Below are positions 7,426 through 25,212 of a DNA stretch of 46,830 bases, piece by piece. The translations under genes and the position numbers were made by a program. The stretch's first letter is position 1; each line of letters begins with the position of its first letter. The notes under the pieces are model-generated. The model saw only the letters and a list, made by a program, of their open reading frames with translations. It made no database searches and had not been told where the DNA came from. Origin of the DNA: an uncultured Candidatus Saccharibacteria bacterium (lineage in GTDB: Bacteria > Patescibacteriota > Minisyncoccia > Phycocordibacterales > JACOZG01); the NCBI GenBank assembly GCA_964444555.1, contig CAYUHC010000003.1, positions 1 through 46,830 of the forward strand, in the 5' to 3' direction.

Positions 7426-7428
7426 CTC

Positions 7429-8892: not shown

Positions 8893-8907
8893 CGAAGGAG
8901 GTGATTT

Positions 8908-10359
8908 GTGTTTACAATAGAGATGATGAAGTATTTTAAACTCAAGCGTTGGTGGTGGTGGCTGATCGCCGCGGTGGTTGTGTTTGGCTTGTTGTGGTGG
9001 TGGTGGTGGCGTGAGCCCGCCGCACCGACTGATCGAGTCACGGTGGCGCCAAGTGACGTGGAGCAGATCGTCACGGTGATTGGTACTGTGGCCGCGGCCG
9101 CCGACACTTCGTTGGCCTTTGAGACGGCGGGCCGAGTGGTGGCGACGCCGGTGATAGTCGGTCAATCCGTCCGGGCCGGTGAGGCCTTGGTGCGCTTGGA
9201 TACGTCCACCCTGGAAGCCGAGTTGGCTGCCGCCCGAGCCGCGGTGGCACTGAAGCGCGCCGAGGCGGGCAACACTTCCATTAACGTCGCGGAGGTGACG
9301 AGAGAGCAAGACCAATTAGTGGTTAGTGCTTATCGCACCCTGCTCTCTAGTGATTTGAGGCCCGTGCCTTCGTCGGCGAACTATGATCTGACGCCGCCGG
9401 TAATTACTGGTCGTTACACTGGGGCGGAGGGGCAATATAAAATTCGTATTCTTCGCAAAACTGGCGGCGGGGATGATTTTGAGTTGTTGACCTTTGGTCT
9501 GGAGCGCTCTGGCCCGATCTTGATCGAAGATAGTGAGCCAACACCGCTCGGGACCCAGGGCTTATTTATTTCTTTCCCTGACGACATTTTTGCTTACGAC
9601 GACACCACTTGGTACATTGATATTCCTAATCAATCAAGCAGCGATTATGCCGACAATTATAATGCTTATCGCGAAGCGATGCGGACTCGTGATCGAGTGA
9701 TTGGTGAGGCCGAGGCCCGAGTGACTGGCAAACTGACTGGTTTAACGGTGGCTGAGGCCGAGGTGGCGCAGGCCGAAGCGGAAGTTCGTCGTCTCGAACA
9801 GGAGATTGCTCAGCGCACGCTCCGTTCGCCAATTGATGGCATAGTGGCACTCCAAGATGCCGAGGTGGGTGAGTTAGTCTCGGCCGGCGTGGTGGTGGCC
9901 AAAGTCATTTCCGCTAATAATTTTGAAATCGAATCAAAGGTGCCCGAGGCGGAGATTGCTAAGTTGGCCGTGGGCAATAAGGGGACGGCGACGCTTGATG
10001 CGTATGGCGAGGCCCTACGTTTGCCGGTGACCGTAACGCAGATTGATCCCGCCGAAACGGTGGTCAATGACGTAGCCACTTACAAAATCACTGTTCAGTT
10101 TGATTCTCGTGACGAGCGGATCCGTTCGGGAATGACGGCTAACGTCAACATTAACTCGGCTTCGAGTAATGGGGCGCTGGCCATTCCCGTCCGAGCCCTT
10201 ATTTATGACGATCGTGGGCCAGCAGTTTACGTTGCTACGGCGACCGGCTCAGAAAAGCGCTCGGTCACGACGGGTATTTTGGGAGTTAATGGTTTGATTG
10301 AGATTTTGTCTGGCTTGGAAGCTGGCGAAGTCGTTTTAACCGACCCACCGCGCGAGTAA
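8908..10359 (+). CDS. HlyD/MacA-family periplasmic adaptor-like protein
   Basis: GAAGGAGGTGA RBS before the GTG at 8908 (alternative ATGs at 8923/8926). Single TM helix, a coiled-coil hairpin (EAELAAARAAVALKRAEA ... AEAEVAQAEAEVRRLEQEIA), and lipoyl/beta-barrel-like segments (IRSPIDGIV). Confidence 0.75.
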   Translation: MFTIEMMKYFKLKRWWWWLIAAVVVFGLLWWWWWREPAAPTDRVTVAPSDVEQIVTVIGTVAAAADTSLAFETAGRVVATPVIVGQSVRAGEALVRLDTSTLEAELAAARAAVALKRAEAGNTSINVAEVTREQDQLVVSAYRTLLSSDLRPVPSSANYDLTPPVITGRYTGAEGQYKIRILRKTGGGDDFELLTFGLERSGPILIEDSEPTPLGTQGLFISFPDDIFAYDDTTWYIDIPNQSSSDYADNYNAYREAMRTRDRVIGEAEARVTGKLTGLTVAEAEVAQAEAEVRRLEQEIAQRTLRSPIDGIVALQDAEVGELVSAGVVVAKVISANNFEIESKVPEAEIAKLAVGNKGTATLDAYGEALRLPVTVTQIDPAETVVNDVATYKITVQFDSRDERIRSGMTANVNINSASSNGALAIPVRALIYDDRGPAVYVATATGSEKRSVTTGILGVNGLIEILSGLEAGEVVLTDPPRE

Positions 10360-10387
10360 ATTTAAACTTTTTAGACGACAATCAAAT

Positions 10388-10412
10388 CTTCGCTTAAAAG
10401 CGGAGATTTTTT
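10388..10412 (+). terminator. rho-independent terminator candidate
   Basis: cttcgc / gcggag forms a 6-bp stem (one G-U pair) with loop ttaaaa, then a T6 run. Confidence 0.5.
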
Positions 10413-10479
10413 GTGGATAAGTGGGGTTGGTGAGTGGGTGGAAGTGGCATATAATGATAGCGTGGTGGGATAAAGTGGG
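10413..10479 (+). promoter_or_regulatory. Pmra-like promoter overlapped by direct GTGG(G) repeats (MraZ-box candidates)
   Basis: GTGGA 10413, GTGGG 10421, GTGGG 10434, GTGGC 10444, GTGGTGGG 10462 and GTGGG 10475. TTGGTG (10427)-17 nt-TATAAT (10450) lies within the array, directly upstream of mraZ. Confidence 0.6.
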
Positions 10480-10485
10480 TTTTAT

Positions 10486-10920
10486 ATGCTCATCGGCGAG
10501 TATCATCATACGATTGACCAGAAGAAACGAATCGCCTTGCCCTCGCGGCTGCGTAAGGAACTTGGTCGTAGTGTGGTAATAACGCACGGGCTGGATCATT
10601 GTTTGGCCGTCTATCCGGAAAAGCAGTGGTCCCACGTTGCCGAAAAGTTAGGCAACCTCTCAATGGGTCAAGCAGACACGCGAAGCTTTAACCGTTTTAT
10701 GTTGGCGGGAGCGGTGGTCGCGGAGGTCGACAAGATGGGGCGAGTGTTGATTCCTGATTTTCTGAAAGAGTATGCCGGCCTCCAAGAAGAAGTGGTGATG
10801 GCGGGAGTCCATAATCGTTTAGAGATTTGGGATCAGGCCCGCTGGCGTGAGTACAAGAGCGGAGTCGAAAAGCAGGCCGACGCTCTGGCGCAAAAGTTAG
10901 GTGAGATCGGAGTGATCTAG
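10486..10920 (+). CDS. mraZ: transcriptional regulator MraZ
   Basis: Two SpoVT/AbrB-like repeats (DQKKRIALPSRLRKEL ... DKMGRVLIPDFLKEY). First gene of the dcw cluster. Confidence 0.93.
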   Translation: MLIGEYHHTIDQKKRIALPSRLRKELGRSVVITHGLDHCLAVYPEKQWSHVAEKLGNLSMGQADTRSFNRFMLAGAVVAEVDKMGRVLIPDFLKEYAGLQEEVVMAGVHNRLEIWDQARWREYKSGVEKQADALAQKLGEIGVI

Positions 10921-10924
10921 GGTT

Positions 10925-11824
10925 ATGGCACATCTCCCTGTTTTGCTCGAAGAGGTGCTGGCCGACTTGGATCCTCAGCCCGACGATGTGATGGTGGATG
11001 CCACAATCAATCGCGGGGGTCACGCCGGAGTGATCTGTCAGCAATTGTCCGGCGGGGGATTCTTAGTTGGGATCGACGCGGACGGCGGAGCGCTCGTCGA
11101 AGCGAAGACGGCTCTGGCTCAGTGTCCTTGCCCGGTTAGATTGATCGAAAGTAATTTCCGTCATCTGGCTGAGCGATTGCACGAGGTCGGGATTACTAGC
11201 GTTAACGGTATCTTGATGGATCTGGGGTGGAGTTCGGATGAGTTGGAGCGTTCGGGTCGGGGATTTAGCTTTCGTCGACACGAACCTCTGCTTATGACTT
11301 ACGCGAGCAATCCCGGTCCTGATGATCTAACGGCGGCCCGAATCGTCAATCAGTGGAGCGAGGAGCGGTTGACCAGCATCTTGCGGGAATTTGGCGAAGA
11401 ACGCTTTGCTCCCCGGATCGCCGCCGCCATCGTGGCCACGCGCCGCCTCCGCCCGATTGAGACGACGGATGATCTGGTGGCGATTGTCTTAAGCGCTGTT
11501 CCGTCCTGGTATACCCATCGCCGTCTCCATCCCGCGACCAAAACTTTTCAGGCCATCCGGATGGCGACCAATGATGAGTTAGGGGCTCTGCAGGCAGGAT
11601 TAGTCAGCGCTTGGCAGGTCTTGGCTCCCGGTGGCCGACTGGCGGTGATCAGTTTCCACAGTCTCGAGGCTCGAATCGTTAAAACTTTTTTTCAAGGGCT
11701 GGTGCGGGAGGGTCGAGCGGAATTTGTTCACAAAAAAGTGACCAAACCAACTTACGCTCAGACTCGCGAAAATCCTCGCAGCCGCAGTGCGCAATTACGA
11801 ACCATTAAAAGAGTATCCTTATGA
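10925..11824 (+). CDS. rsmH: 16S rRNA (cytosine1402-N4)-methyltransferase
   Basis: HLPVLLEEVL, DATINRGGH, GILMDLGWSS, SFHSLE and RSAQLR motifs of RsmH/MraW. Confidence 0.93.
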   Translation: MAHLPVLLEEVLADLDPQPDDVMVDATINRGGHAGVICQQLSGGGFLVGIDADGGALVEAKTALAQCPCPVRLIESNFRHLAERLHEVGITSVNGILMDLGWSSDELERSGRGFSFRRHEPLLMTYASNPGPDDLTAARIVNQWSEERLTSILREFGEERFAPRIAAAIVATRRLRPIETTDDLVAIVLSAVPSWYTHRRLHPATKTFQAIRMATNDELGALQAGLVSAWQVLAPGGRLAVISFHSLEARIVKTFFQGLVREGRAEFVHKKVTKPTYAQTRENPRSRSAQLRTIKRVSL

Positions 11825-12138
11825 CCACACTTCGCACCGTTGAATATCCTTATCGTTTATATGTTCATTATTTTTTGGCTTTAGCGGTGGTGGTCTTGGG
11901 CGTCTACATTTTCTTTGTTAATGCCATCATTATGGACGTCGTGGGACGTGAGCGCGCTCTCCAGTCATTGGCCGAGATTAAAACTGAGGTAACGACCCTA
12001 GAGTCGGCTTACTTAACTTTGGCTAGTACGGTGACGCTTGATCGAGCCACGGAGTTGGGCTTGGTCCCCGTGGCTGGCGCGACGGACTTTGCTTATCGCG
12101 AGAGTGCTCCGACGGCGCAAGTTAGCTTTCGACGCTAA
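11821..12138 (+). CDS. ftsL: small bitopic membrane protein, positional FtsL candidate
   Basis: 105 aa with a single TM helix, then a short coiled segment. It sits between rsmH and the class B PBP, with an ATGA overlap with rsmH. Confidence 0.55.
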   Translation: MTTLRTVEYPYRLYVHYFLALAVVVLGVYIFFVNAIIMDVVGRERALQSLAEIKTEVTTLESAYLTLASTVTLDRATELGLVPVAGATDFAYRESAPTAQVSFRR

Positions 12139-12154
12139 GTAATACCGAGAGTCT

Positions 12155-13861
12155 ATGGCGGCCAGATTGGAGCGACGAATCGGAATTATTGCGGGCTTGC
12201 TAGTTTTGGGCGTTTTAATTTTAACCGCTCGGTTGTTTTTTATTCAGATTGTTAAAGGGGGGTATTATGCCGACCGAGCCGATCGCCAATATCAGCGACC
12301 AGTTACTAACGCGCCAGACCGGGGCTCAATTTATTTTTTAACTAAAGACGGAGCGCGGGTGACCGCCGCCACGATGCGACAGGGTTTTGTGGTGGCGATT
12401 AATCCGCGGTTGATTAAAGATCCAGCCGAGACCTATCGCCGGCTGGCCGAGATCTTGCCCTTGGAGCGAGAAACTTTTTTAGCTCAAGCTAGTGATCGAG
12501 ACGATTCCTATGTGGAGATTGCCGATCGCGTCGAGACGCGCGTGGCCGACCTGATTGCCGCCGCCAAGATTGAGGGTGTTGGGGCTTACCAAAAGCGTTG
12601 GCGCGTCTATCCGGCCGGGACGCTGGCGGCGCACGTGCTCGGCTTTATTGCCTATGATGGCGATACGCGCACTGGCCGTTATGGTTTGGAGAAGCAGTAT
12701 AACGAAATTTTAGAACGCGATCCGACCCAAACCTTTATTAACTTTTTGGGTCGGGCCTTTGCCGAGATCCGCGGCACGGCCTCTGGTCGCTTAACGCAAA
12801 CTGAGGCGGATTTGGTTCTGACGATTGAGCCGGAGGTCCAACTTAATTTAGAAAAGGAGTTGGCGTTAGTCCGTGAGCGTTACGCCGCCGCCGAAGTCGG
12901 TGGGATTGTGCTGGAGCCCACCACCGGCGCGGTGGTGGCGATGGCGGCGGCACCCAATTTTGATCCCGGCGGCCGCCAGAGTGATATCTCGATTCTCACC
13001 AACCCTCTCGTCAGTAAGGTTTACGAAATGGGCTCAATCGTTAAGCCGCTCACCGTGGCGGCCGCCCTGGATGCGGGAACCATTACTGCCGATACGACTT
13101 ACGTCGACACGGGCCGCCTCTTGATTGATGGTCGACCGATCATGAATCATGATGGCAAGAGTCATGGTGCGGTCTCGATGCAACAGGTCCTTAACCAGTC
13201 TCTAAACACTGGAGCGGTTTTTGCGATGCAGAGTTTGGGTAAGTCCAAATTCCGTGACTACTTTTACGGCTACGGTTTAAGCGAGAAGACGGGGATTGAT
13301 CTACCTAGCGAAGGTACGGGTTTGTTAAAAAATTTAAATAGCCCGCGCGAGGTCGAGTACGCGACGGCCTCTTTCGGTCAGGGGATTGCGGTGACGCCCA
13401 TTGCCATGGCGCGCGCTTTGGCGGTGCTAGCCAATGGTGGTAAATTAGTCACGCCGTACGTGGTGGCGCGCTTTGATCGTTACAATAGTCGCTTGTCGAG
13501 CGAGGTGACGCCGGCCTCTGGGCGAAGTGTTTTGAAGCCAGAAACCAGCGCCGAAATTAGTCGGATGCTCGTGCGAGTCGTTGACGAATCTTTGGCGGGC
13601 GGCAAAGCTAAGCTTGAGCACTATCAGGTGGCCGCTAAGACGGGTACGGCGCAGATGGCCAATCCGGCTGGCGGCTATTACGCTGATCGCTATCTGCACT
13701 CCTTCTTCGGCTACTTTCCCGCTTCGGCGCCACGCTTCTTGACCTTTCTTTACGTTGTCTACCCGCAGGGCGTCCAATACGCTTCCGAGACGCTGACTCA
13801 GCCGTTTATGAATCTAACCAACTTTTTGATAAACTATTACCAAGTGCCGCCGGACCGCTAA
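12155..13861 (+). CDS. ftsI: class B penicillin-binding protein (division transpeptidase, FtsI-like)
   Basis: TM anchor, SxxK (GSIVK), SxN (SLNTG) and KTG (AKTGTAQ) motifs, and dcw context. Confidence 0.88.
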   Translation: MAARLERRIGIIAGLLVLGVLILTARLFFIQIVKGGYYADRADRQYQRPVTNAPDRGSIYFLTKDGARVTAATMRQGFVVAINPRLIKDPAETYRRLAEILPLERETFLAQASDRDDSYVEIADRVETRVADLIAAAKIEGVGAYQKRWRVYPAGTLAAHVLGFIAYDGDTRTGRYGLEKQYNEILERDPTQTFINFLGRAFAEIRGTASGRLTQTEADLVLTIEPEVQLNLEKELALVRERYAAAEVGGIVLEPTTGAVVAMAAAPNFDPGGRQSDISILTNPLVSKVYEMGSIVKPLTVAAALDAGTITADTTYVDTGRLLIDGRPIMNHDGKSHGAVSMQQVLNQSLNTGAVFAMQSLGKSKFRDYFYGYGLSEKTGIDLPSEGTGLLKNLNSPREVEYATASFGQGIAVTPIAMARALAVLANGGKLVTPYVVARFDRYNSRLSSEVTPASGRSVLKPETSAEISRMLVRVVDESLAGGKAKLEHYQVAAKTGTAQMANPAGGYYADRYLHSFFGYFPASAPRFLTFLYVVYPQGVQYASETLTQPFMNLTNFLINYYQVPPDR

Positions 13862-13871
13862 TCTTTTTACG

Positions 13872-15170
13872 ATGGCTCGCCAATTTTTACGCTCAATCGT
13901 TATTGCTATTATTCGTTGGGAGGCCAAACAAGTCCTCCGCAAGTATCGTCCCAAAATTGTGGGCATTACCGGTAGTGTGGGCAAGACGGGAACCAAGGAG
14001 GCCGTGGCCACGGTGCTCCGCTCGCGTTACCAGGTTCGGCAGAGTGCTAAAAGTTTTAATGGCGAGTTGGGCGTTCCGCTTACAATCTTAAATCTCCCTA
14101 ACGCTTGGTTAAGTTTGTCTGGTTGGTTAAAAAACATTGTGGAGGGTGCCAGTCTCATTTTGTTTAAAAGTCCTTACCCGGAGTGGCTGGTGTTGGAGGT
14201 GGGAGTGGAACAGCCTGGCGACATTGATTGGATTACGAGTTGGGTTAAGTTTGACGTCGCGGTGGTGACGCGCCTACCGGAGGTGCCCGTCCATGTGGAA
14301 TATTTTTCTTCTCCCGAAGAGGTAGCCGAAGAGAAGATGAAGTTGGCCCAAGCGGTGCCGGCGACGGGAAGGGTTATTTTAAATGGGGACGATGAACGGA
14401 TCATGGCGCGCTCGCGCGGCCTCTCGGCGCCCGCGGTGACTTATGGCTTTGGCCCCGGCCTAACTATCCAGGGCGAGCATCCCGAATCGTTGATCGAAGA
14501 GGGGGTGCCCAAGGGACTTAGTTTTAAATTAGCCACGGGTGGGCACAATTTGCCCGTGCGCGTTAAGGGCTTGGCCGCGCCACATCAGTTATATGGCGTG
14601 ATGGCGGCGATAGCGGTGGGGCAATTTGTGGGCCTTAATTTGGTGGAGATCGCCGAGTCGCTTGGTCATCTCGAGACACCGCCGGGTCGTTTCCGACTAA
14701 TCCCAGGCATCAAAGAGACGTTGATCGTAGATGATAGTTATAATTCGTCGCCGGCGGCGCTTGAGGCGGCGCTAGAAACTTTTGGCAAAATGAGTACGAC
14801 TGGTCGGCGCTTGGCCGTCTTAGGCGATATGCTCGAGTTGGGGCCGCTGACGATTGAGGCCCATCGCCGCGCCGGCGAGCAGGTGGCCGCCGCCAAAATT
14901 GATTTTTTAATTACCGTGGGGATGAGGACTAAGTTTTTGGCCGAGGCGGCGCATAAGCACAAGATGCTTAAAAAGCAGATGCTCCATTTTGATACGTGGC
15001 AGGGGGTGGGGGAGAAGTTGCAAGCGATGCTCCAGCCCGGCGATATTGTGCTCATTAAGGGCTCGCAGTCAATCCGGCTGGAAAAGGTGGTGGAGGAAGT
15101 GATGGCCGAGCCCGACCGCGCCGCCGAGCTCCTCGTCCGCCAGGATCCCGAGTGGAAGAAGCGTGGCTAA
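13872..15170 (+). CDS. murF: UDP-N-acetylmuramoyl-tripeptide--D-alanyl-D-alanine ligase
   Basis: Mur ligase P-loop GITGSVGKTGTKEA, DDSYNSSP, and a C-terminal Mur ligase domain. Confidence 0.88.
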   Translation: MARQFLRSIVIAIIRWEAKQVLRKYRPKIVGITGSVGKTGTKEAVATVLRSRYQVRQSAKSFNGELGVPLTILNLPNAWLSLSGWLKNIVEGASLILFKSPYPEWLVLEVGVEQPGDIDWITSWVKFDVAVVTRLPEVPVHVEYFSSPEEVAEEKMKLAQAVPATGRVILNGDDERIMARSRGLSAPAVTYGFGPGLTIQGEHPESLIEEGVPKGLSFKLATGGHNLPVRVKGLAAPHQLYGVMAAIAVGQFVGLNLVEIAESLGHLETPPGRFRLIPGIKETLIVDDSYNSSPAALEAALETFGKMSTTGRRLAVLGDMLELGPLTIEAHRRAGEQVAAAKIDFLITVGMRTKFLAEAAHKHKMLKKQMLHFDTWQGVGEKLQAMLQPGDIVLIKGSQSIRLEKVVEEVMAEPDRAAELLVRQDPEWKKRG

Positions 15171-15217
15171 GGGCGGAGTAGCAATACTTGACGAAAATTT
15201 TTTCTTGGCCATCCACC

Positions 15218-15255
15218 AGCCGCTGAGTTTTACACACTCAGCGGCTTTAATTTTA
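15218..15255 (+). terminator. rho-independent terminator ending the mraZ-murF operon
   Basis: Perfect 11-bp stem agccgctgagt / actcagcggct with loop tttacac, then ttaatttta. Confidence 0.8.
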
Positions 15256-15352
15256 TAATAGGTAGTGTTTTAGGTGAGCTTCTAAGGACGCCTGGTCAGA
15301 AATGGTTTCTAAAATAAACAATCCGTTTCTTATTAGGGGCTGAACAGTCACC

Positions 15353-15381
15353 TTGACAATGTGATATTAAAGGTATATAAT
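15353..15381 (+). promoter_or_regulatory. perfect consensus sigma-70 promoter TTGACA-17 nt-TATAAT
   Basis: TTGACA at 15353-15358 and TATAAT at 15376-15381 with an exact 17-nt spacer, about 80 nt upstream of the cassette's first ATG. Confidence 0.75.
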
Positions 15382-15460
15382 ATAAGATAGAGATGGCATT
15401 GGGTCATCTGTTCATTCACAAGGGTCCTAGAGAACCCGTTTCCCTAAAGGAGCAAATCTC

Positions 15461-15997
15461 ATGACGACGACCAAAGAAATGGTTCTGCGGACACTCGGCA
15501 GTTCTGGAGTTTCCTTCGACGAATCTGTGGTTGACTTACTCGAGCAGCGAATCGAGAAAGCTATTCAGGGTCGCAGAAGGAACCAGAAGCTCAGTCCCCT
15601 GGGGTTGGCATTCACGACCGCCAGGAACTGGGCAGTCAGCCAGAAGCGGAGATCCGCTGCGGCTGCCAGACGAACGGCTCGCGAGCTTCTCGCTGCAGAG
15701 CAGGCTCGCCTCGAGAAAGACCTGTATGAGCGGTGCCGGGAAGAGTTTGATCGAATTTTCTTCAAACTCCTGCCCGATCTCCGCTGCAGTCAGCCGAAGC
15801 AGCTTCAGCTCGTAAAGCTGATCTGCTTCGAAGGCCTTTCTCTGGAAGAGTGCGCGGAGCGCTTGCCGGGAACTTCCGGCGAACAGCGCTTTAAGTGGAA
15901 GGCGCGCGGGTTCAAACTGGTGATGGCGCAGGCTTCGCCAGAACTCCAGCAGTACCTTCGCCGCTTCTTGACCGCGAAGAGCGAGTGCAAGAGGTGA
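15461..15997 (+). CDS. divergent sigma-70/ECF-like protein (region-2-like and region-4 HTH-like segments)
   Basis: AAAGGAG lies 8 nt before the ATG. FTTARNWAVSQKRR resembles the end of ECF region 2. LLPDL..QPKQLQLVKLICFEGLSLEECAERLPGTSGEQRFKWKARGFKLV fits the region 4 pattern (Lp..qr.v..L....g.s..EiAe.lg.s.g.vk....ra...L). Assigned by eye only. Confidence 0.45.
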   Translation: MTTTKEMVLRTLGSSGVSFDESVVDLLEQRIEKAIQGRRRNQKLSPLGLAFTTARNWAVSQKRRSAAAARRTARELLAAEQARLEKDLYERCREEFDRIFFKLLPDLRCSQPKQLQLVKLICFEGLSLEECAERLPGTSGEQRFKWKARGFKLVMAQASPELQQYLRRFLTAKSECKR

Positions 15998-16101
15998 AAA
16001 CCAAATGGTCCAGGGAGTACCAGAAAACTCCCTTCCGTCTCGGAATGTGTATTCCGACCGATGAAGGCGAAAGCCAGAAACGGAATTGCTCATTGTCACT
16101 C

Positions 16102-16144
16102 GGCCATAGCGAGCCACTTCCGAAAGGAGAAATCGCATGTATCG
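16102..16144 (+). repeat. leader repeat copy 1 (includes the SD and first codons of the downstream ORF)
   Basis: ggcCatagcgagccActtcc-gaaaggagaaatcgcatgtAtcg matches copy 2 at 16467-16510, with 3 substitutions and 1 indel. Confidence 0.85.
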
Positions 16145-16442
16145 TAGAATCGAAGTCCCTGGTAGATCAGCAATGCTGCTGGCCTCCAAGGCGATGGTGG
16201 GATCGGGACTCCCTGATCCTGAGAAGTTATTCCTGCGACCAACGAACAAAACGCTACACTTCTTCTTTACCGAATACGGATGGGAGAAGTGCGGACATGC
16301 CATTCTGAGCGAGCTTCGCTCTAAGGGACATCGCGCTCGAGTTATCTCGGTCGGAGAGAAGGCTGCTCAAAGCAGCATCCGATATCGCGATAAGTGGCAA
16401 GTGGCACTTCTGTTTTGTTGGCCCAAGGGGAAATCCCGTTGA
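16137..16442 (+). CDS. hypothetical protein, 101 aa, no recognisable motif
   Basis: AAAGGAG lies 7 nt before the ATG, inside the conserved leader repeat. Same strand and codon style as the upstream sigma-like ORF. Confidence 0.55.
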   Translation: MYRRIEVPGRSAMLLASKAMVGSGLPDPEKLFLRPTNKTLHFFFTEYGWEKCGHAILSELRSKGHRARVISVGEKAAQSSIRYRDKWQVALLFCWPKGKSR

Positions 16443-16466
16443 TTCTTGGGATCAGTTTTTGGCAAA

Positions 16467-16510
16467 GGCTATAGCGAGCCGCTTCCTGAAAGGAGAAATC
16501 GCATGTTTCG
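16467..16510 (+). repeat. leader repeat copy 2
   Basis: ggcTatagcgagccGcttccTgaaaggagaaatcgcatgtTtcg; see copy 1. Confidence 0.85.
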
Positions 16511-16925
16511 GAAACTGACCACGATCGTGGACTGCAAACTCGCCCGGGAAATTGAAAAAGATCCCGAGTCCGAAGTTTGTTCCTCCGAGGGGTTCAAGGT
16601 GTGCATGGAACTCGCCCTTGCGGTAGTCTACCGAGGACTCAACCTCACTCTCGGGAGGCGAGTCTTACTCAGTAAGGAAAGCGAGAGCGGCAACGACAAA
16701 GTCCTGGAGAAGTTCTTCGGGTCAGAAGGGTACTGCTTGCGTCACGAGATTCAAGCAGCCCACCGGATCGAAGTCGTGATCCACCTCGGGTCAGAAGCAA
16801 CTTCATTTCGTTGGCTGCTGCTTCTGTTCGAGAAGAGTGAGAAGGAGCCCTTTTATGTCCTGAGCATGGACGTGGGGTTAGACGGAAAAATCTCGCGACC
16901 GCACCTGACGAACATGAAACAGTGA
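16503..16925 (+). CDS. hypothetical protein, 140 aa, no recognisable motif
   Basis: The start is placed at the ATG at 16503 because the duplicated SD-containing leader precedes it. The listed start at 16446 would read through the leader repeat. Confidence 0.55.
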   Translation: MFRKLTTIVDCKLAREIEKDPESEVCSSEGFKVCMELALAVVYRGLNLTLGRRVLLSKESESGNDKVLEKFFGSEGYCLRHEIQAAHRIEVVIHLGSEATSFRWLLLLFEKSEKEPFYVLSMDVGLDGKISRPHLTNMKQ

Positions 16926-16964
16926 CCAATTCCCAACCGCATTTCAGTAGCGTTTAATACTGAA

Positions 16965-16993
16965 CCCGCGTTCGAAAGAGCGCGGGATTTTTG
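16965..16993 (+). terminator. strong rho-independent terminator closing the three-gene cassette
   Basis: cccgcgttc / gagcgcggg forms a 9-bp stem (one G-U pair) with a GAAA tetraloop, followed by atttttgtt. Confidence 0.8.
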
Positions 16994-17008
16994 TTACACT
17001 TTTATCAT

Positions 17009-17644
17009 ATGGAAGATTTGACTAGACAGGCCGATCAAAAAATCCGCGAATGGGCAGCGAGAAAAGATAAGCTAGTGGTCGCAATTGACGGCTATACCGG
17101 CGTGGGAAAAACCACTCTGCTGGATAATCTAACTAAACAGAATCCTGATATTGTTCCGGTACATTGGGATGATTTTCTAATGTCCAGTCGAGAATGGGAG
17201 GAAAAATTGAAGAATGATGCCGGGCGGGCGGAAGTCTGTCCGACCAGCCACACCGATCACGACAGAATTGAAAAAGTGATTACCGATTTTAGAAATCAAA
17301 ATGGGATTTACCAAACTAATATTTTTAATCCGCAGACCGGGGAAGTAGACACGCCAATTGAGTATGACTTTTCCAAAAAGATTTTGGTGATGGACGGCGT
17401 CTTTGTGTTCCATCCCAAACTTTTAAACCATCTCTGGGATAAACGAATCTATGTTGACGGCGATACCGATGAAATAGACCGTCGCCGGGTCGCCCGAGAG
17501 AAAGCACGCTGGGGCGAGAAATATTTTCCCGAAACTCATCCCGACTCCCACTTCCGCAAACTCACGATCGCTCTAAAAAAATATCGGGCCGAGCACAAAC
17601 CAGAAGAAAAAGCAGATTTAGTGCTTCACAACACCGACGAATAA
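17009..17644 (+). CDS. P-loop kinase, uridine kinase/phosphoribulokinase-like family
   Basis: Walker A in VVAIDGYTGVGKTTLL, ILVMDGVFVFHP and RIYVDGDTDEIDRRRVARE resemble the Udk/PRK fold. The ATG at 17009 is preferred over the TTG at 16991, which lies in the terminator. No obvious SD. Confidence 0.55.
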   Translation: MEDLTRQADQKIREWAARKDKLVVAIDGYTGVGKTTLLDNLTKQNPDIVPVHWDDFLMSSREWEEKLKNDAGRAEVCPTSHTDHDRIEKVITDFRNQNGIYQTNIFNPQTGEVDTPIEYDFSKKILVMDGVFVFHPKLLNHLWDKRIYVDGDTDEIDRRRVAREKARWGEKYFPETHPDSHFRKLTIALKKYRAEHKPEEKADLVLHNTDE

Positions 17645-18151
17645 TTAAAAGATTCCCAGAGTTTGGACTTTTTTCAGAAGAAAAGTATCTCTTTCGACAA
17701 CATACTTACTCTCGTGATTATTGGCCCGGCTTTCCATGAGTTCAATAGCTTTATCCAACGGCATCCAAATTGCATCCTGAAAACCATTATCTAGTTCATG
17801 TTGAGTAAAAGTAGCTTTCTGCTTTTCGCCTTTTGTTTTGCCGACGTAGCAATAGGAAGTTTGGACGAGAGAAAACTCGGCTCGATACTCCATTACCGAA
17901 CCTAGTTCCCGAATTACCTCCACATCTGTACCGATCTCCTCCAAACATTCTCGACGGAAAGCCTCTACCTTATCCTCACCATTTTCGATTCCTCCTCCGG
18001 GAAGTTTATAATAGTTATGAGCAGTTACGGGAAGAAGCGCTACATTTTTATTTTCATCAAAGACCACGCCTCTGGCGGCAAATCTCGTCCTCAGATTAGC
18101 GGCGGCTTTGTCAGTGATATTGCTTGGATTTAACTTAAGAATTTGTTCCAT
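17645..18151 (-). CDS. NUDIX hydrolase
   Basis: The Nudix box GGGIENGEDKVEAFRRECLEEIG matches GX5EX7REUXEEXGU. Confidence 0.85.
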   Translation of the reverse strand: MEQILKLNPSNITDKAAANLRTRFAARGVVFDENKNVALLPVTAHNYYKLPGGGIENGEDKVEAFRRECLEEIGTDVEVIRELGSVMEYRAEFSLVQTSYCYVGKTKGEKQKATFTQHELDNGFQDAIWMPLDKAIELMESRANNHESKYVVERDTFLLKKVQTLGIF

Positions 18152-18191
18152 ATTCTTCGACGCTTCTCGTGCGTACAGACCTCGCTCGACT

Positions 18192-18266
18192 TGGTGACCC
18201 TACGGGGAGTCGAACCCCGATTACCACCGTGAGAGGGTGATGTCCTAGCCATTAGACGATAGGGCC
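18192..18266 (-). tRNA. tRNA-Glu (anticodon CUC), CCA encoded
   Basis: The reverse complement GGCCCTATCGTCTAATGGCTAGGACATCACCCTCTCACGGTGGTAATCGGGGTTCGACTCCCCGTAGGGTCACCA folds as a cloverleaf. It has a 7-bp acceptor stem, D arm GTCT/GGAC, anticodon loop CTCTCAC, a 4-nt variable loop and T arm CGGGG-TTCGACT-CCCCG. Confidence 0.9.
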
Positions 18267-18345
18267 GTTCGGCAGTAATGGTACCATATTTTTATTCGTT
18301 CGCAACCGTTGGTCGGCGCTGGGGCGCGTGGTACGATAGAGAGCA

Positions 18346-19422
18346 ATGGAAACAAGTTTTTATGTTTTAGCGGGACTCCTGGTGGTGGCGATTGGGGTCA
18401 TTGTGTGGCTCTGGCGTCGCCGCCAAGAGAGCTCGGCGCCCGGCTCTGATCAGGGCCTTCTCTTGATCCAGAGTCAGTTGGCCGAGCAGGCACGAGCCAT
18501 TAGTGAGTTTGGTCGGCTCATGGACGGCAAGCTTACCGAGTCGAGTCGGTGGATGCAGGATTCCCTGCGGAGTCAATTTTCCGAATCAACCAAAATTATT
18601 CGCGAGATTACCACCGAGTTGGCGCGAGTAGGCGAGGGGCAAAAGCAGGTGATGAACTTTACCGAACAGCTCCGCGACTTGCAGGATATTTTAAAAAATC
18701 CCAAGCAGCGCGGGATTTTGGGCGAGTATTATTTGGAGACTTTGTTAAAAAATGTTTTGCCGCCAGGCTCTTTCCAGATGCAATATCCGTTTCCGGATGG
18801 GACGATCGTGGACGCGGCGGTTTTCGTGCGCGACAAGATTATTCCCGTCGACTCCAAGTTTTCGCTCGAAAACTATAATCGCTTAGTCGCCGAGCGTGAT
18901 CCGGCCGAGCGCGAGCGACTCGAAAAGCTTTTCGTCAACGATCTCAAATTGCGAATTCAGGAGACGGCCAAGTATATCCAGCCGGAGCGGGGGACGCTCG
19001 AGTTTGCCTTTATGTTTATTCCGCACGAGGCCATTTATTACGATCTCTTGGTTAGCACAGTGGGCGCGCTTAAGGATGATACAGAAAATTTGATTCAACG
19101 GGCGGCCAGCAAGTATCACGTCATTATCGTTTCGCCCACCTCGTTCTTGGCTTACCTGCAAACCGTGCTTCAAGGTTTAAACGCGATGAAGATTGAGGAA
19201 AAGGCGCAAGAGATTGTTAAGCGCGTCGCGGAGCTTGGCAAGCATCTTAAGGCCTATGAGGAGTATCACGTTAAGTTGGGTAATTCGCTCGGCACGGTGG
19301 TTAACCATTTTAATAACGGCAGTAAGGAGCTAAAAAAGATCGATAAGGACGTTTTGCGGATCTCTGGCGCCGCCCCGGGATTGGCGATTGAGTTGGTGGA
19401 CAGTCCACAGCGTGAGGAATAG
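18346..19422 (+). CDS. rmuC: DNA recombination protein RmuC
   Basis: N-terminal TM helix, long coiled-coil, and a C-terminal nuclease-like core (GILGEYYLETLL ... FAFMFIPHEAIYYDL ... VIIVSPTSFLAYLQTV). Confidence 0.85.
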   Translation: METSFYVLAGLLVVAIGVIVWLWRRRQESSAPGSDQGLLLIQSQLAEQARAISEFGRLMDGKLTESSRWMQDSLRSQFSESTKIIREITTELARVGEGQKQVMNFTEQLRDLQDILKNPKQRGILGEYYLETLLKNVLPPGSFQMQYPFPDGTIVDAAVFVRDKIIPVDSKFSLENYNRLVAERDPAERERLEKLFVNDLKLRIQETAKYIQPERGTLEFAFMFIPHEAIYYDLLVSTVGALKDDTENLIQRAASKYHVIIVSPTSFLAYLQTVLQGLNAMKIEEKAQEIVKRVAELGKHLKAYEEYHVKLGNSLGTVVNHFNNGSKELKKIDKDVLRISGAAPGLAIELVDSPQREE

Positions 19423-19444
19423 AGGAGTAGCGGCCAAAAAGAAA

Positions 19445-19482
19445 CCGCCAGTTCCCATGGGGATAATCTGGCGGGTTGTTTG
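19445..19482 (+). terminator. terminator candidate after rmuC
   Basis: ccgccag / ctggcgg forms a 7-bp stem with a 16-nt loop, followed by a weak U tract, gttgtttg. Confidence 0.4.
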
Positions 19483-19659
19483 AGGCGTGCGGCACCCTGT
19501 TTCTTGCATTTTGGCGCGGTCAAGGGTGCCGCAGCGAGTGGAAGTTCGATTCGGAGACCAAGGCCTCCTGTGGGGTACAATAGCATACAAAAAGTAGGTG
19601 CGCAACTATTTGATTTTATGCTAGAGTAAGAGACGGAATCTTAATTGGAGGAACTTAAA

Positions 19660-20394
19660 ATGCTGAAAGGAAAAACCATTGTAGTGATTGGGGCAACGGG
19701 GGGGTTGGGTTGGCCGCTATCGAAGTATTTAAGCAGTCAGGGAGCCAACTTGGTGCTGGTGTCGCGCGGGCAAGATAAGCTTAATGAGCTGTTGGGAGAG
19801 ATTGGGCCCGAGCGAGCGCTGGCGATTGCGGCCGATGCTTCGGATCTGATCGCGATGCGCGATCGGGTGATCCCTCAAGCGATGAGTCGTTTTCGCTTGA
19901 TTGATGGCGTCGTCTTGTCGGCTGGTAGTTGGAGCCGCTCGGAGGTCTTGGTAAATCCCGCCGAAGAGATTTTGGCCGCGGAAGCCAAGATGCGCCAGGG
20001 CATGGTTTTGCCAACGCTAGTGCCGGCTCTGGCCTTTGCCGACCACTTTAAGGATCAGAATCACGGCCACATCTTCCACATTTCTTCTCACGTGGTTGAG
20101 CGTGCGGAATTGGCAGGTAACTTTGCCTATCGCTTGGCCAAGCAAGTTGGAAGCAATTTGATGCTCCAGTTGGCCATTCGCTTTCAGGGTGAACGTCTGT
20201 CCATCCGCACATCCGACCTGCGTCCCGGGATTATTAATACCCGAGACACCGAGGGGGTAATTCGGGAGGCGGGTTTTGATCCGGCGACGGAGGCGGTCCA
20301 GCCCGAGGTGATTGGCGAGTGGATTGCTCATCACCTCAATGATTCCGAGTCGCCCCTGATTGGTTCCTTTGCTTGTAAGGCCGTTTTGCCTTAG
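19660..20394 (+). CDS. short-chain dehydrogenase/reductase family protein
   Basis: GGAGGA lies 7 nt before the ATG at 19660. It has the Rossmann motif VIGATGGLG and a YxxxK-like segment, YRLAK. Confidence 0.75.
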   Translation: MLKGKTIVVIGATGGLGWPLSKYLSSQGANLVLVSRGQDKLNELLGEIGPERALAIAADASDLIAMRDRVIPQAMSRFRLIDGVVLSAGSWSRSEVLVNPAEEILAAEAKMRQGMVLPTLVPALAFADHFKDQNHGHIFHISSHVVERAELAGNFAYRLAKQVGSNLMLQLAIRFQGERLSIRTSDLRPGIINTRDTEGVIREAGFDPATEAVQPEVIGEWIAHHLNDSESPLIGSFACKAVLP

Positions 20395-20423
20395 CGATTT
20401 TGGCTGGGGTCACCCAGCGCCCG

Positions 20424-20467
20424 GCCCGTCGATGGAGTCCACCCCGGCTCCTCGACGGGCTTTTTTT
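20424..20467 (+). terminator. rho-independent terminator
   Basis: gcccgtcga / tcgacgggc forms a 9-bp stem, with an inner ggag/ctcc pairing, then a T7 run. Confidence 0.8.
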
Positions 20468-20510
20468 CTGCCTTGCTTTTTATTGGTAGATGTGTAAAAT
20501 AAGAGCCACT

Positions 20511-20825
20511 ATGTCATTTGCAGTAATCAAGACCGGGGGCAAGCAATACAAGGTTTCGGCTGGCGACACGCTCAAAATTGAGAAGTTGGCTGGTGCCGAA
20601 AAGGATGGCCAAGTCACTTTTGACGAAGTGCTATTGGTTGATGATGGCTCGACCACCCGCGTCGGGGAGGCGGCTTCGGGCGCCAAGGTTACGGCCACGG
20701 TAGTGGAGGAGGCCGGCCGCGCCGATAAGGTGGTAGGTATCAAGTACCGCGCCAAGAGCCGCTACCGCGTTAAGTACGGTCATCGTCAGCCCTTTACCTC
20801 GGTTAAGATCGCTGAAATAAAATAG
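20511..20825 (+). CDS. rplU: 50S ribosomal protein L21
   Basis: The MSFAVIKTGGKQYKVSAGD start is typical of L21. The ATG at 20511 is preferred over the listed start at 20490. Confidence 0.92.
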   Translation: MSFAVIKTGGKQYKVSAGDTLKIEKLAGAEKDGQVTFDEVLLVDDGSTTRVGEAASGAKVTATVVEEAGRADKVVGIKYRAKSRYRVKYGHRQPFTSVKIAEIK

Positions 20826-20852
20826 GACCTCTTTCTTGAGCGCCTTCAGGCA

Positions 20853-21482
20853 TCATTCTCGATGTTTGAGGGCGCTTTTTATTGTGTCGGGATCAGAATA
20901 CTCTAGTTCCGAACCAGTGGAGAGGCCACGGCCGAGTGTCGAAATTTTAAGCCCATGGCGTTCGGTCGTGGGGGCTAAATATTGTCGCAAAAAGTCAGCC
21001 GTATGATCGCCTTCGGTATTGGCCGAGAGGGCGAGAATAATTTCTTTTAAACCATGAGTGGTTCGGCTGGCGATTTGAGCTAAAAGTTCCGGCCCCCGGA
21101 TCCGTAGTTCGGGATTTTTTTCTAGGACGGGTACCAGCGAACCCAACACAAAGTAGTGACCCTCGTAGGTTCGCGAGCGCTCGATGGTTTCGAGGTCGGT
21201 ATCTTTTTCGACGAGCAAGAGGAGGCGGGGATCGCGTTTGGGATTGGCGCAGATCGGGCAGAGTGAGCCGGTTGTTTGATGTTCGCGTCCAGAAAAGAAG
21301 CGGTGGCAAGTCGGGCATTGGTTAACCTGGGCCCGTAATTCTTTGATCCGTTCGATCAGCGTGTGGACGTTGCTGTTTGAGGAGCGGAGGAGGTAATAGA
21401 CAAAGCGTTCCGCCTGGCGCGGTCCAATACCGGGGAATTTGCGGAACTCTTCCGCTAGTTGTTGGATCACCTTGTCGCTCAT
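20853..21482 (-). CDS. recR: recombination protein RecR
   Basis: HhH N-terminus (FPGIGPRQAERF), a C4 zinc finger (CPTCHRF...CPICANP) and a Toprim domain. Confidence 0.92.
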   Translation of the reverse strand: MSDKVIQQLAEEFRKFPGIGPRQAERFVYYLLRSSNSNVHTLIERIKELRAQVNQCPTCHRFFSGREHQTTGSLCPICANPKRDPRLLLLVEKDTDLETIERSRTYEGHYFVLGSLVPVLEKNPELRIRGPELLAQIASRTTHGLKEIILALSANTEGDHTADFLRQYLAPTTERHGLKISTLGRGLSTGSELEYSDPDTIKSALKHRE

Positions 21483-21491
21483 GGAGTGGAT

Positions 21492-22859
21492 TTAAAAGCC
21501 GCCAAAGTCGCTTTTCTCGAGCGTATTAAAGCTGGTCCGAGCCTCATCAAAGTAGAGTTGGACTTCGCCGGTTGGGCCATTGCGGTGTTTGGCGATAATG
21601 ATTTCGGCAATATTTTTTTTGTCGGAATTTTCGTTCATTTTATCTTCGCGATGGATAAACATCACCACGTCGGCGTCTTGCTCGATGGAGCCGGAGTCGC
21701 GCAGGTCAGAGAGGCGAGGCTTGCCACCGCGCTGTTCGACGGCGCGGGAGAGTTGCGAGAGGGCGAGGACGGGGGCCTCCATTTCGCGAGCGAGAGCTTT
21801 GAGCGAGCGCGAGATCTCGGTGACTTGTTGGACCAGGGAGTCGCTATCTTTTTTGGGCACCATCAGCTGGAGGTAATCGACGATGATTAGATCCAAGCCG
21901 TGTTCGGCTTTGAGTTTGCGACAGACCGACTTCATTTTAGTGATGGTATTGCCTGGCTCGTCGTCGATAAAGATTGGTGCCGTCGCGAGGCGATCAAGCG
22001 CGTCGCGGATGCGGCCAAAGTCGTCATCGGTTTTCACTTTTCCAGTGCGGAGTTGCCAGGAGTCTACCTTACTTTCGGCGGCCAAGAGGCGGTCGACGAG
22101 TTGCTGAGTGCTCATTTCGAGCGAAAAGATGCCAACGACCTTATTTTGACCACAAGCGACGTTGCGAGCGATGTCGAGCGCTAGCGAAGTTTTACCCACC
22201 GAGGGGCGAGCCGCCAAGATCACTAGGTCGGAGCGCTGGAGACCGGCTAGTTTGTTATCAATGTCGCGAAAGCCGGTCGGCACGCCCCGCATCTCACCGT
22301 CTGATTTGTGGAGCTTGTCGAGTCGTTCCCAGGCGTCAACGAGAGTGTCTTTAATTCGCGTAAAAGTTTTTTTGGAATAATGACCAATTTCCAAAATCGT
22401 TCTTTGGGCTTTGTCGAAAACGGTATCGAGATCTTCGGATTCGTTGTAACTAAGTTCCGCGATGCTATCGGCCGAAGAGATTAATTGTCGGAGAATAGAT
22501 TTTTTCTTAACAATTTCGGCGTAATACTTAACGTTGCTGGTGGAGGGGACGGCGTTAACCATTTCGGCGATGTAGGCCGCGCCGCCGATCTGTTCGATCT
22601 GTTTGCGCTCTTTTAAGTAGCCAGTCAGGGCCACCATGTCGATTGGCTCACCCTTTTCGTGAAGGGCCATCATTGCCTTGTAGATTTTGCGGTGCTTTTC
22701 GGCGTAAAAGTCGGTGCCGTCGATGACGTCCATTACTTCGTAGATGGCGTCAGGCCGGAGCATGATCGCGCCGAGCAGTGCCTGCTCGGCGCCGATATCT
22801 TGCGGCGGGATCCGGAGCGGACTTTTTACAAATTCGCCAGCTGTTCTTAGCTCACTCAT
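21492..22859 (-). CDS. dnaB: replicative DNA helicase DnaB
   Basis: PPQDIGAEQALLGAIM N-terminal motif, Walker A ARPSVGKTS, IIVDYLQLM. No intein-sized insertion (455 aa). Confidence 0.95.
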   Translation of the reverse strand: MSELRTAGEFVKSPLRIPPQDIGAEQALLGAIMLRPDAIYEVMDVIDGTDFYAEKHRKIYKAMMALHEKGEPIDMVALTGYLKERKQIEQIGGAAYIAEMVNAVPSTSNVKYYAEIVKKKSILRQLISSADSIAELSYNESEDLDTVFDKAQRTILEIGHYSKKTFTRIKDTLVDAWERLDKLHKSDGEMRGVPTGFRDIDNKLAGLQRSDLVILAARPSVGKTSLALDIARNVACGQNKVVGIFSLEMSTQQLVDRLLAAESKVDSWQLRTGKVKTDDDFGRIRDALDRLATAPIFIDDEPGNTITKMKSVCRKLKAEHGLDLIIVDYLQLMVPKKDSDSLVQQVTEISRSLKALAREMEAPVLALSQLSRAVEQRGGKPRLSDLRDSGSIEQDADVVMFIHREDKMNENSDKKNIAEIIIAKHRNGPTGEVQLYFDEARTSFNTLEKSDFGGF

Positions 22860-22909
22860 TAGGCAGATTGTACCACGCTCCCCAGGGGCAAAAAATCGAG
22901 CCCAAGTGT

Positions 22910-25155: not shown

Positions 25156-25212
25156 TAGTATAGCGTGATTCTAGTTTGACCACCAAGGGTCAATTTGGGA
25201 TAATTGAGCAAC

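Follow-up and report, generated by a model that had tools for sequence, protein, structure and literature searches.

We analyzed a window of 46,830 nucleotides (nt) from an uncultured Candidatus Saccharibacteria bacterium (positions 1 to 46,830 of contig CAYUHC010000003.1, GenBank assembly GCA_964444555.1). A discrete 1.66-kb cassette on its plus strand (positions 15333-16995), consisting of a promoter, three open reading frames (ORF1, ORF2, and ORF3), and a terminator, contains a type III hammerhead ribozyme motif in the spacer between ORF1 and ORF2. The cassette is probably a horizontally acquired, mobile operon of a sigma-like regulator whose transcript is split by this ribozyme, a reading that we favor with some reservation. 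An earlier note on the same DNA had described the cassette as a foreign, regulatory three-gene unit. Its account omitted both the hammerhead motif and a hairpin/Shine-Dalgarno (SD) leader that is repeated in the cassette, which we judge to be the most informative features of the unit.

A hammerhead ribozyme motif between ORF1 and ORF2

The presence of the hammerhead motif in the window (Table 1) is certain. Covariance model R2, built without the copies of the window and of loci L001, L005, and L087, matched window positions 16028-16086 with a score of 65.0 bits (E = 9e-18), and the next match within the 46.8 kb reached 12 bits. In a structure count over 42 distinct copies, 91.6% of cells were paired, and nine pairs and 103 cells were changed on both sides. 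None of 500 shuffles scored as high, and slid controls gave 28-49%. The aligned spacers of the window, L001, and L005 gave the arrangement UUCCGUC / UCGGAAU-GUGU-AUUCCGA / CCGAUGA / AGGC-GAAA-GCCA / GAA / ACGGAA. All pairs of stems I and III of the window copy are standard, as are three of the four positions of stem II, the fourth being A·A. Compared with the invariant core (C3 U4 G5 A6 N7 G8 A9...G12 A13 A14), the window core CCGAUGA...GAA deviates only at U4, and the A15.1-U16.1 pair (16080/16038) and C17 (16039) are present.

Several points count against an active ribozyme. The U4C change and the A·A mismatch at the most conserved pair of stem II (10.1/11.1) could each abolish cleavage. Rfam, searched over the cassette (15300-17000) at E ≤ 10, returned noise only, and its model RF00008 left the window copy unmatched. 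The same model scored the L005 spacers at 46.0 and 37.2 bits and the L133 spacers at 47.3 and 37.7 bits, all below its gathering threshold of 48.5 bits. The training set of the covariance models was gathered with a pattern taken from the window sequence, which fixed most of the core and the first bases of the 3' strand of stem III. This pattern leaves most of stem I, the 5' strand of stem III, and the stem II pairings free, and those parts therefore provide independent structural support.

Similar deviations were found in other copies. Position 10.1/11.1 was non-standard in 15 of the 42 rows, mostly as U·U, and U·U at this position occurs naturally (PMC3088659). A C4 core was also present in L001, the second L005 copy, two of the three L087 copies, and one L034 copy, with stems that differ, and one of the L087 copies has both deviations (C4 and 10.1/11.1) but a compensated stem II. 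In a viroid, a ribozyme with U4C is reported to be active in vivo, sufficiently for infectivity (PMC3088659).

These observations bear on the possibility that the cassette is an ordinary acquired operon of a sigma-type regulator and that its hammerhead is a relic without catalytic activity. In that case, the conserved spacer and untranslated regions (UTRs) would act only as hairpins, serving for example to block RNases or exonucleases, to bind proteins as operators, or to attenuate translation. A relic would fit the U4C and A·A (10.1/11.1) deviations of the window copy and its lack of an Rfam match, as well as the report that core mutations mostly cut activity drastically (PMC3088659). In addition, every leader is predicted to form pairs between its SD and a UUCC further upstream, and this pairing could be the real regulatory feature. 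Decay is, however, not what the C4 core points to: it is shared by at least four other copies with different stems, which argues for tolerance or selection. Stems I to III and all other core positions are intact in the window copy, and L005 and L133 carry canonical-core copies in the same position beside homologous genes. The spacer is also more constrained than synonymous sites. The 139-nt spacers of the window and L001 differ at 3 positions (97.8% identical) and their 70-nt 3' UTRs agree at 70 of 70 positions, compared with 21 synonymous differences in ORF1 and 23 in ORF3 (next to 7 and 13 non-synonymous ones, respectively), and purifying selection on these non-coding parts is therefore stronger than on silent sites. 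We regard a dead relic as unlikely, and catalysis by the window hammerhead, as predicted from its sequence and that of its relatives, as probable.

Related hammerheads in viral contigs and candidate-phyla genomes

A degenerate core pattern recovered 22 stretches from viruses, 9 from genomes, and 90 from metagenomes. The majority shared one architecture: a 5' hairpin, CCGU(A/C), the stem I hairpin, CUGAUGA, stem II, GAAACGG, and a start codon 20-130 nt further on. An equivalent of hairpin H1 (Table 1), with different stem sequences, precedes nearly every related hammerhead, and hammerhead arrays of two or three copies exist. In L133, hammerheads join an ORF1 homologue to a STIV_B116-like gene. 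At 1361-1423 of the same locus, protein P0020 carries a false N-terminal extension, MCVPTDELERAKQ, which is a translated canonical hammerhead, and the true start is the ATG following AAAGGAGGAATCTC. Such translation of hammerheads into the starts of proteins may be a frequent error of gene-calling programs.

The same hammerhead type precedes varied candidate-phyla genes, among them genes for periplasmic binding, small membrane, and response-regulator-like proteins. In L037 (3783-3841), L065 (538-596), and L113 (2181-2239), loci that include annotated Saccharibacteria contigs, a hammerhead lies 19-72 nt upstream of genes encoding 358-371 amino acids (aa), whose products look, by eye, like periplasmic substrate-binding proteins. 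The position of the hammerhead ahead of these genes indicates that the ribozyme also serves ordinary chromosomal genes. Judged by its distribution, this hammerhead type appears to be a general processing element of candidate-phyla lineages and aquatic phages that is not specific to the cassette. In L035 (781-839, Candidatus Kaiserbacteria chromosome OY969413.1), a sequence read by eye as tRNA-5'-end-like (GGGATGGCGGAATTGGTAG) follows a hammerhead of this type within about 45 nt, an arrangement that hints at ribozyme-assisted processing of the tRNA 5' end.

Repeated leaders ahead of the three genes

The initiation regions of the three ORFs (CTAAAGGAGCAAATCTCATG, CGAAAGGAGAAATCGCATG, and TGAAAGGAGAAATCGCATG) are nearly identical, as had been noticed before, and the likeness runs about 45 nt further in the 5' direction, hairpin included. 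These leaders are of two types, A and B (Table 1). ORF2 is flanked by two copies (16102-16144 and 16467-16510) that are about 91% identical. When L005 is compared with the window, ORF1 and ORF3 have exchanged leader types, so that type B precedes the L005 homologue of ORF3. ORF2 is absent from loci L001-L004, with the junctions inside the repeated leader. From the location of the ORF2 junctions, the swap of leader types, and the existence of a lone ORF3, we infer that the leaders act as recombination joints in a pool of small genes. A scan of IMG/VR with leader pattern GGCYATAGCGAGCCRCTTC gave 0 matches. Two patterns derived from other leaders (L005, L137, L131, and L132) gave 0 and 30 matches in the same database, and the 30 lay in unrelated coding contexts and numbered about what is expected by chance.

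Other conserved segments were found upstream of related genes. L005 (170-300) and L137 (85-190) share about 130 nt (77% identical) upstream of the first gene of both contigs. A palindrome, TGGATTCAT(A/G)TATCCA, lies within it, together with a hairpin in which compensating changes distinguish the stems of the two contigs. The region matched neither Rfam nor viral contigs. Located where other loci have the hammerhead, it may be a promoter/operator or an RNA element not yet described. The small-gene contigs L131 (540-585), L132 (455-504), and L134 (150-245 and 900-990) carry further conserved leaders, none with a match in Rfam, one of which consists of a 9-bp hairpin (GTTTCTGAA..TTCAGAAAC) followed by TT(T/C)AGAGATTCGTTCTT. 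The ORF1-like gene of L134 is flanked by direct repeats of about 60 nt.

ORF1 belongs to a divergent sigma-like family

A profile made from three close ORF1 sequences was searched against 1.84 billion representative proteins. It defined a family of at least 124 protein clusters at E ≤ 1e-3 (60 at E ≤ 1e-10), mostly of 160-185 aa, with the conserved motifs ARNWA.D..R near residue 55 and FPGT...QR..WK.RG.KL near residue 140. ORF1 was matched by NCBIfam TIGR02937 (sigma70-ECF, where ECF denotes extracytoplasmic function) over aa 25-135 and profile positions 30-143 of 165 (E = 2e-4, 21 bits, cut-off 42.9), and by Pfam Sigma70_ECF (PF07638; E = 0.0019, 18.5 bits, cut-off 21.1). TIGR02937 also matched 19 of 82 family members (best E 3.6e-8), an ECF-type model matched 17, and the Pfam sigma r2 and r4_2 domains matched three each. 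The remaining profile matches of these 82 members were nearly all to sigma models, and for ORF1 itself PHROGs returned nothing and PADLOC only a 12-bit DpdF fragment.

The AlphaFold (AF2) model of ORF1, with a predicted local distance difference test score (pLDDT) of 87.6, is all-helical and contains a continuous helix of 61 residues. When the model was compared with the PDB by Foldseek, the list was dominated by sigma factors and sigma-4 domains, all at E ≥ 0.086 and none significant; a profile search of PDB sequences with ORF1 gave nothing significant and no sigma factor. The proposal that ORF1 is a sigma-like protein with a helix-turn-helix (HTH) was thus supported by the matches to TIGR02937 and Sigma70_ECF, the recurrence of the former among family members, and the sigma-dominated though non-significant Foldseek list. 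We conclude that ORF1 probably represents a highly divergent branch of the sigma-70/ECF superfamily and is, if not that, at least a DNA-binding protein of the sigma-4 type.

Some relatives of ORF1 have neighbors of their own. In L136 (540-752), a 70-aa ORF starts 13 nt after the gene of a distant ORF1-family member, and its HVDKCKTC sequence fits the HxxxCxxC motif of zinc-binding anti-sigma factors, without Pfam support. Elements of about 135 nt that resemble transfer-messenger RNA (tmRNA) directly adjoin two ORF1-family genes, in L134 (6-140) and L135 (625-763). Their RF00023 scores were 41.9 bits (E = 4e-14) and 44.7 bits (E = 2.6e-15), respectively, which is less than the threshold of 47 bits. 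The elements could be tmRNA genes in reduced form or, alternatively, tRNA-like attachment sites marking islands.

Organization and borders of the cassette

The features of the cassette are listed in Table 1. The promoter, the three same-strand ORFs, and the 9-bp terminator with its GAAA loop had all been described in the earlier note and were found as it gave them. By our own arithmetic, a perfect match to the promoter consensus is expected by chance about 0.02 times per 46.8 kb on both strands. We place the predicted transcription start at about 15388, and the 5' hairpin would then adjoin the 5' end of the transcript. At the right end of the unit, the 3'-UTR hairpin directly precedes the terminator. 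In the alignment of the window with L001, the borders of the cassette fall immediately 5' of the -35 hexamer and immediately 3' of the terminator T run.

Table 1. Features of the cassette and its hammerhead motif, in window coordinates
Feature	Position	Strand	Description	Basis
Left border of the transferable unit	15333-15352	+	weakly conserved, upstream of -35	blastn match to L001 begins at 15333; sequence further left unrelated
Consensus sigma-70-type promoter	15353-15381	+	TTGACA-17-TATAAT	12/12 positions; hexamers identical in L001
5' hairpin	15391-15409	+	AGATG...CATCT	read from sequence; 100% conserved in L001
Leader copy 1 (type B)	15422-15452	+	hairpin GGGT(CCTAGAGA)ACCC, anti-SD-like UUCC, SD AAAGGAG	alignments
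ORF1	15461-15997	+	178 aa	ORF list
Hairpin H1	16013-16032	+	GGGAG(UACCAGAAAA)CUCCC, abuts stem III	minimum-free-energy fold
Type III hammerhead ribozyme motif	16033-16085	+		leave-out covariance model R2
Stem III	16033-16038 with 16080-16085	+		
Predicted cleavage site	after C16039	+	GUC/U	
Stem I	16040-16046 with 16051-16057	+		
Core CCGAUGA	16058-16064	+	C in place of U4 at 16059	
Stem II	16065-16068 with 16073-16076	+	A·A at 10.1/11.1 (16065/16076)	
Core GAA	16077-16079	+		
Leader copy 2 (type A)	16102-16129	+	hairpin GGC(CATAGCGA)GCC, UUCC(GAAA)GGAG, SD AAAGGAG	alignments, fold
ORF2	16137-16442	+	101 aa	ORF list
Leader copy 3 (type A, 3' part only)	16467-16495	+	hairpin GGC(TATAGCGA)GCC, SD AAAGGAG	alignments
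ORF3	16503-16925	+	140 aa	ORF list
3'-UTR hairpin	16943-16964	+	TTCAGTA(GCGTTTAA)TACTGAA	read from sequence; inside the 70-nt 3' UTR identical to L001
Intrinsic terminator and right border	16965-16995	+	9 pairs, GAAA loop, and T run at 16965-16986; right border to 16995	L001 match stops at 16995

All three ORFs have homologues with conservative substitutions and are, on this evidence, real genes. The start of ORF3 was set at ATG 16503 because all homologues begin with MFRKLTT; the ORF list also holds a TTG-extended version of 159 aa from 16446. An antisense ORF of 255 aa, which had been named as a possible conserved frame, is a shadow ORF: it was checked in L001 and L005 and is not conserved, the longest open antisense stretches there being 157 and 138 codons, respectively.

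The murF gene upstream (13872-15170) has its own terminator hairpin at 15218-15246. The absence of mraY after murF had been remarked upon and was seen, but it is not specific to the cassette. A close relative (L128, described below) likewise has no mraY after murF, and the absence is therefore a trait of the lineage. The cassette had also been placed beside a tRNA gene. That gene, tRNA-Glu(CUC), lies at 18192-18266 on the minus strand, 1.2 kb away, with two genes between. Rfam at the gathering threshold identified only the tRNA in the whole window.

Foreign origin and mobility

The difference in codon choice from the flanking genes, previously judged by eye, holds in computed codon usage and in the directions named. 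Relative to 37 host ORFs, the cassette uses CTG (0.36 vs 0.14), TTC (0.67 vs 0.26), and AGA plus AGG (0.22 vs 0.06) more, and TTG (0.08 vs 0.27) less. The per-codon likelihood under host usage was low (z = -2.1 for ORF1, -2.5 for ORF2, and -1.2 for ORF3).

A word-indexed search of 5.8 billion proteins gave two ORF1 relatives only. The closer one, 96% identical, is encoded on four contigs of one study (L001-L004), which align to the window only at 15333-16144 (93.6%) and 16459-16995 (88.3%), with no match outside. In L001, the cassette sits between a TrmB-like gene and a P-loop kinase gene, and its flanks have a G+C content of 43-48%, compared with 53.4% for the cassette. The P-loop kinases that follow the cassette in the window and in L001 share only 24% identity. 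A close relative of the host (L128, GCA_964651115.1; about 87% identity) is collinear over window positions 3909-15163 and 17667-26003, and it has two unrelated genes in place of 15164-17666, so that the cassette is absent. Both window junctions were reproduced exactly in an independent assembly (L006). The replacement in L128 and the unalignable flanks of L001 indicate that the stretch from murF to tRNA-Glu is a variable island that the cassette entered recently. With its discrete borders, its deviant codon usage, its absence from a collinear relative, and its recurrence in an unrelated context, the cassette bears out the earlier description of a self-contained foreign unit.

Other observations concern the surroundings of the cassette. 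Inside the variable island of L128, positions 12119-12143 repeat 25 nt of the tRNA-Glu 3' end, and an extra stretch of about 75 nt (13468-13545) duplicates the tRNA-Glu 5' end beside the gene. Both fragments look like scars of integrative elements. A search of the window with the tRNA-Glu 3'-end fragment found only the gene itself (18188-18266), and neither L128 fragment is present. In both the window (17009-17644) and L001 (4224-5964), the cassette is followed by genes for a P-loop kinase (PRK/uridine-kinase-like) and NUDIX proteins, and a 14-aa motif (KPEEK.DLVL) at the C terminus of the window kinase recurs within a His_Phos-NUDIX fusion protein of L001. A preference for this kind of target site, or a functional link, may explain these common surroundings. 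Elsewhere in the window, the ORFs at 44557-45084 and 45277-46197 have low G+C contents (0.35 and 0.43, host mean 0.51) and low G+C at third codon positions (0.31 and 0.45), and may be a further acquired segment.

A foreign unit of this kind could also be phage derived, either a moron or the remnant of a phage early region, for instance a sigma-like take-over factor that stayed behind in the chromosome. IMG/VR viral contigs of 25-63 kb contain the same hammerhead architecture in abundance, units of promoter, gene, and terminator are typical of morons, and the L133 hammerheads tie an ORF1 homologue to a STIV_B116-like gene. The proteins themselves, however, were not encountered among phages: tblastn with ORF1, ORF2, and ORF3 found no match in 50,697 GenBank phage records, and an IMG/VR scan with a peptide pattern from 14 ORF1-family sequences gave seven stretches, none of which was confirmed, in line with the empty leader scan. 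No phage genes flank the cassette, neither in the window (murF, P-loop kinase, and NUDIX) nor in L001 (TrmB-like regulator, kinase, and NUDIX genes), and the same hammerhead type precedes ordinary chromosomal genes of Saccharibacteria. We therefore give a phage origin little credence. The small contigs L005 and L130-L136 had no terminal overlaps, so none was shown to be circular.

ORF2 and ORF3

ORF2 and ORF3 had been described as orphans, and they remain without family matches, since profile searches of Pfam, PHROGs, PADLOC, and PDB sequences gave nothing above noise for either. The AF2 model of ORF3 (pLDDT 76) is alpha/beta and has no structural match; Foldseek searches against PDB and BFVD gave only low-probability candidates, such as RecA/KaiC-like folds, which were discarded. 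The two ORF2 homologues (P0017 and P0018, 51-55% identical) are encoded on other short contigs (L131 and L132) with different small neighbors. ORF3 homologues are 43-91% identical. In L005, an ORF1 homologue (58% identical) is followed by an ORF3 homologue, and ORF2 is absent. The trio, whose co-occurrence elsewhere had been suggested as a check, was never found outside the window, where only the pair of ORF1 and ORF3 recurred (window, L001-L004, and L005). By this distribution, ORF1 and ORF3 appear to form a conserved but not obligate core in three lineages, and ORF2 appears to be an accessory gene.

The earlier note had suggested a defense or addiction module. As a defense, toxin-antitoxin, or addiction module, the cassette would consist of a private regulator controlling two small effector or immunity proteins on a mobile island by a tRNA gene. 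The variable island near tRNA-Glu, the att-like 25-nt tRNA fragment in L128, the foreign codon usage, and the small orphan proteins of very narrow distribution would all suit such a module. PADLOC, PHROGs, and Pfam gave no support for it, however, and no toxin-like fold was found. The linkage of the genes is also loose, with ORF2 missing in L001 and L005, ORF3 alone in L137, and ORF2 homologues next to other neighbors, and we consider this function very doubtful.

Proposed mechanism

In the reading that we favor, a mobile sigma-like operon with a ribozyme-split transcript, the housekeeping sigma factor of the host would transcribe the unit from the consensus promoter through to the strong terminator. 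On family-level evidence, ORF1 would be a divergent ECF-type sigma-like protein, with a short sigma-2-like N terminus ending in ARNWA.D..R and a sigma-4-like HTH. Its probable action is to redirect RNA polymerase, or at the least to bind DNA. ORF3 would be its usual partner and ORF2 an accessory. Cleavage by the hammerhead after C16039 would give two messages. The one for ORF1 would have hairpin H1 and a 2',3'-cyclic phosphate at its 3' end, and the one for ORF2 and ORF3 would start with a 5'-hydroxyl, the stem I hairpin, and the standard hairpin/SD leader. The UTR next to the promoter mimics this downstream layout, with a 5' hairpin (15391-15409) and a leader of its own. Cleavage would uncouple the stability and translation of the regulator message from those of the downstream genes, and, as the junctions suggest, the repeated leaders and hammerheads may double as joints for gene exchange by recombination. 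Bacterial hammerheads flank prophage genes, where they possibly process polycistronic mRNA, and independent message stability and translation have been proposed as an outcome (PMC3088659, PMC6765202).

Beyond the points raised for the ribozyme, several results weigh against this mechanism. ORF1 scores below every curated sigma threshold, 63 of the 82 family members match no sigma model, and the predicted 61-residue helix is unlike solved ECF sigma factors. Neither an anti-sigma domain nor a zinc-binding HxxxCxxC motif was found in ORF2 or ORF3. Transfer machinery, such as an integrase, a transposase, or repeats at the ends, was not found. An integron cassette was considered as a further reading, and no integrase lies near the unit. 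In L137, an ORF3 homologue (56% identical) stands alone, with the same leader and its own terminator.

A broader and highly improbable proposal is that genes bounded by hammerheads and leaders form a modular gene-exchange system in candidate-phyla bacteria and mobile elements, in which the ribozyme sets a unit-length RNA that is circularized or recombined. In L005, two same-strand hammerheads bracket the ORF1 homologue with predicted cut sites 668 nt apart, and cleavage at both would therefore free a complete leader-ORF1 RNA with 5'-OH and 2',3'-cyclic-phosphate ends. RtcB-type ligases act on ends of this kind, and if the proposal were true, the RNA could be circularized into a translatable circular mRNA, recombined, or copied into DNA, making it a protein-coding prokaryotic analogue of retrozymes. 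It would also account for identical leaders on non-homologous genes and for insertion junctions inside leaders.

Comparison with known systems

The window motif resembles the type III hammerheads of phages and prophages (Perreault et al. 2011, PMC3088659; RF00008) in its three-way junction with stems I and II closed and stem III open, its GUC triplet, its CNGAUGA...GAAA core, its intercistronic position a few tens of nucleotides before a start codon, and the occurrence of arrays. Unlike them, the window copy has C4 and an A·A at 10.1/11.1 and falls below the Rfam threshold. It lies inside a 1.66-kb sigma-like operon on a chromosome and not within a prophage, with H1 as a fourth hairpin 5' of the motif and a conserved hairpin/SD leader 3' of it.

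ORF1 shares with ECF (group 4) sigma factors (TIGR02937, PF07638, and PF04542/PF08281) a size of about 170-180 aa, the region-2-end motif ARNWA.D..R, and a C-terminal sigma-4-like HTH, and its recurrent profile matches are to sigma models only. It differs from them in its sub-cut-off scores, its shortened N-terminal domain, and the predicted 61-residue helix that bridges the two halves. The promoter of the cassette is of the housekeeping type and not an autoregulated ECF type, and no recognizable anti-sigma factor is encoded.

In T4-type phages, mobile regulatory cassettes (promoter-early stem-loop repeats) drive gene shuffling. Like these cassettes and like morons, the unit has short regulatory repeats around small non-homologous ORFs at insertion/deletion junctions, together with its own promoter and terminator. 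Unlike in the T4-type cassettes, the repeats are an RNA leader and a ribozyme, the location is a bacterial chromosome, and no phage genome with these genes was found.

RiboJ is a synthetic insulator, consisting of a hammerhead and a hairpin set ahead of the ribosome-binding site, that normalizes the 5' UTR (PMC7536230). The order of parts in the cassette (hammerhead, hairpin, SD, and start codon) is the same, and cleavage would likewise yield a context-independent 5' end downstream. The cassette hammerhead is, in contrast, natural, lies between cistrons and not after a promoter, and has a predicted activity only. The likeness is mechanistic and does not imply a common family.

Significance

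Each component of the cassette is of a known kind, and these kinds are extended without any change of paradigm. The role of genomic bacterial hammerheads is largely elusive (PMC6765202), and the cassette offers a compact, clonable model for their function and for the cutting of multi-gene messages. It is a tractable unit: its promoter should be readable by an E. coli-type polymerase, it contains a single ribozyme and three short genes, and its terminator is strong. There are also natural variants with or without ORF2 and with canonical or C4 cores. It could thus show whether ribozyme cleavage sets the ratio of regulator to downstream-gene expression. The comparison also documents recurrent natural U4C cores, and it makes ORF1 the founding example of a previously unannotated, divergent sigma-like family of at least 124 clusters. 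Finally, it reveals one hammerhead architecture that is common to aquatic phage contigs and to ordinary genes of the candidate phyla radiation (CPR).

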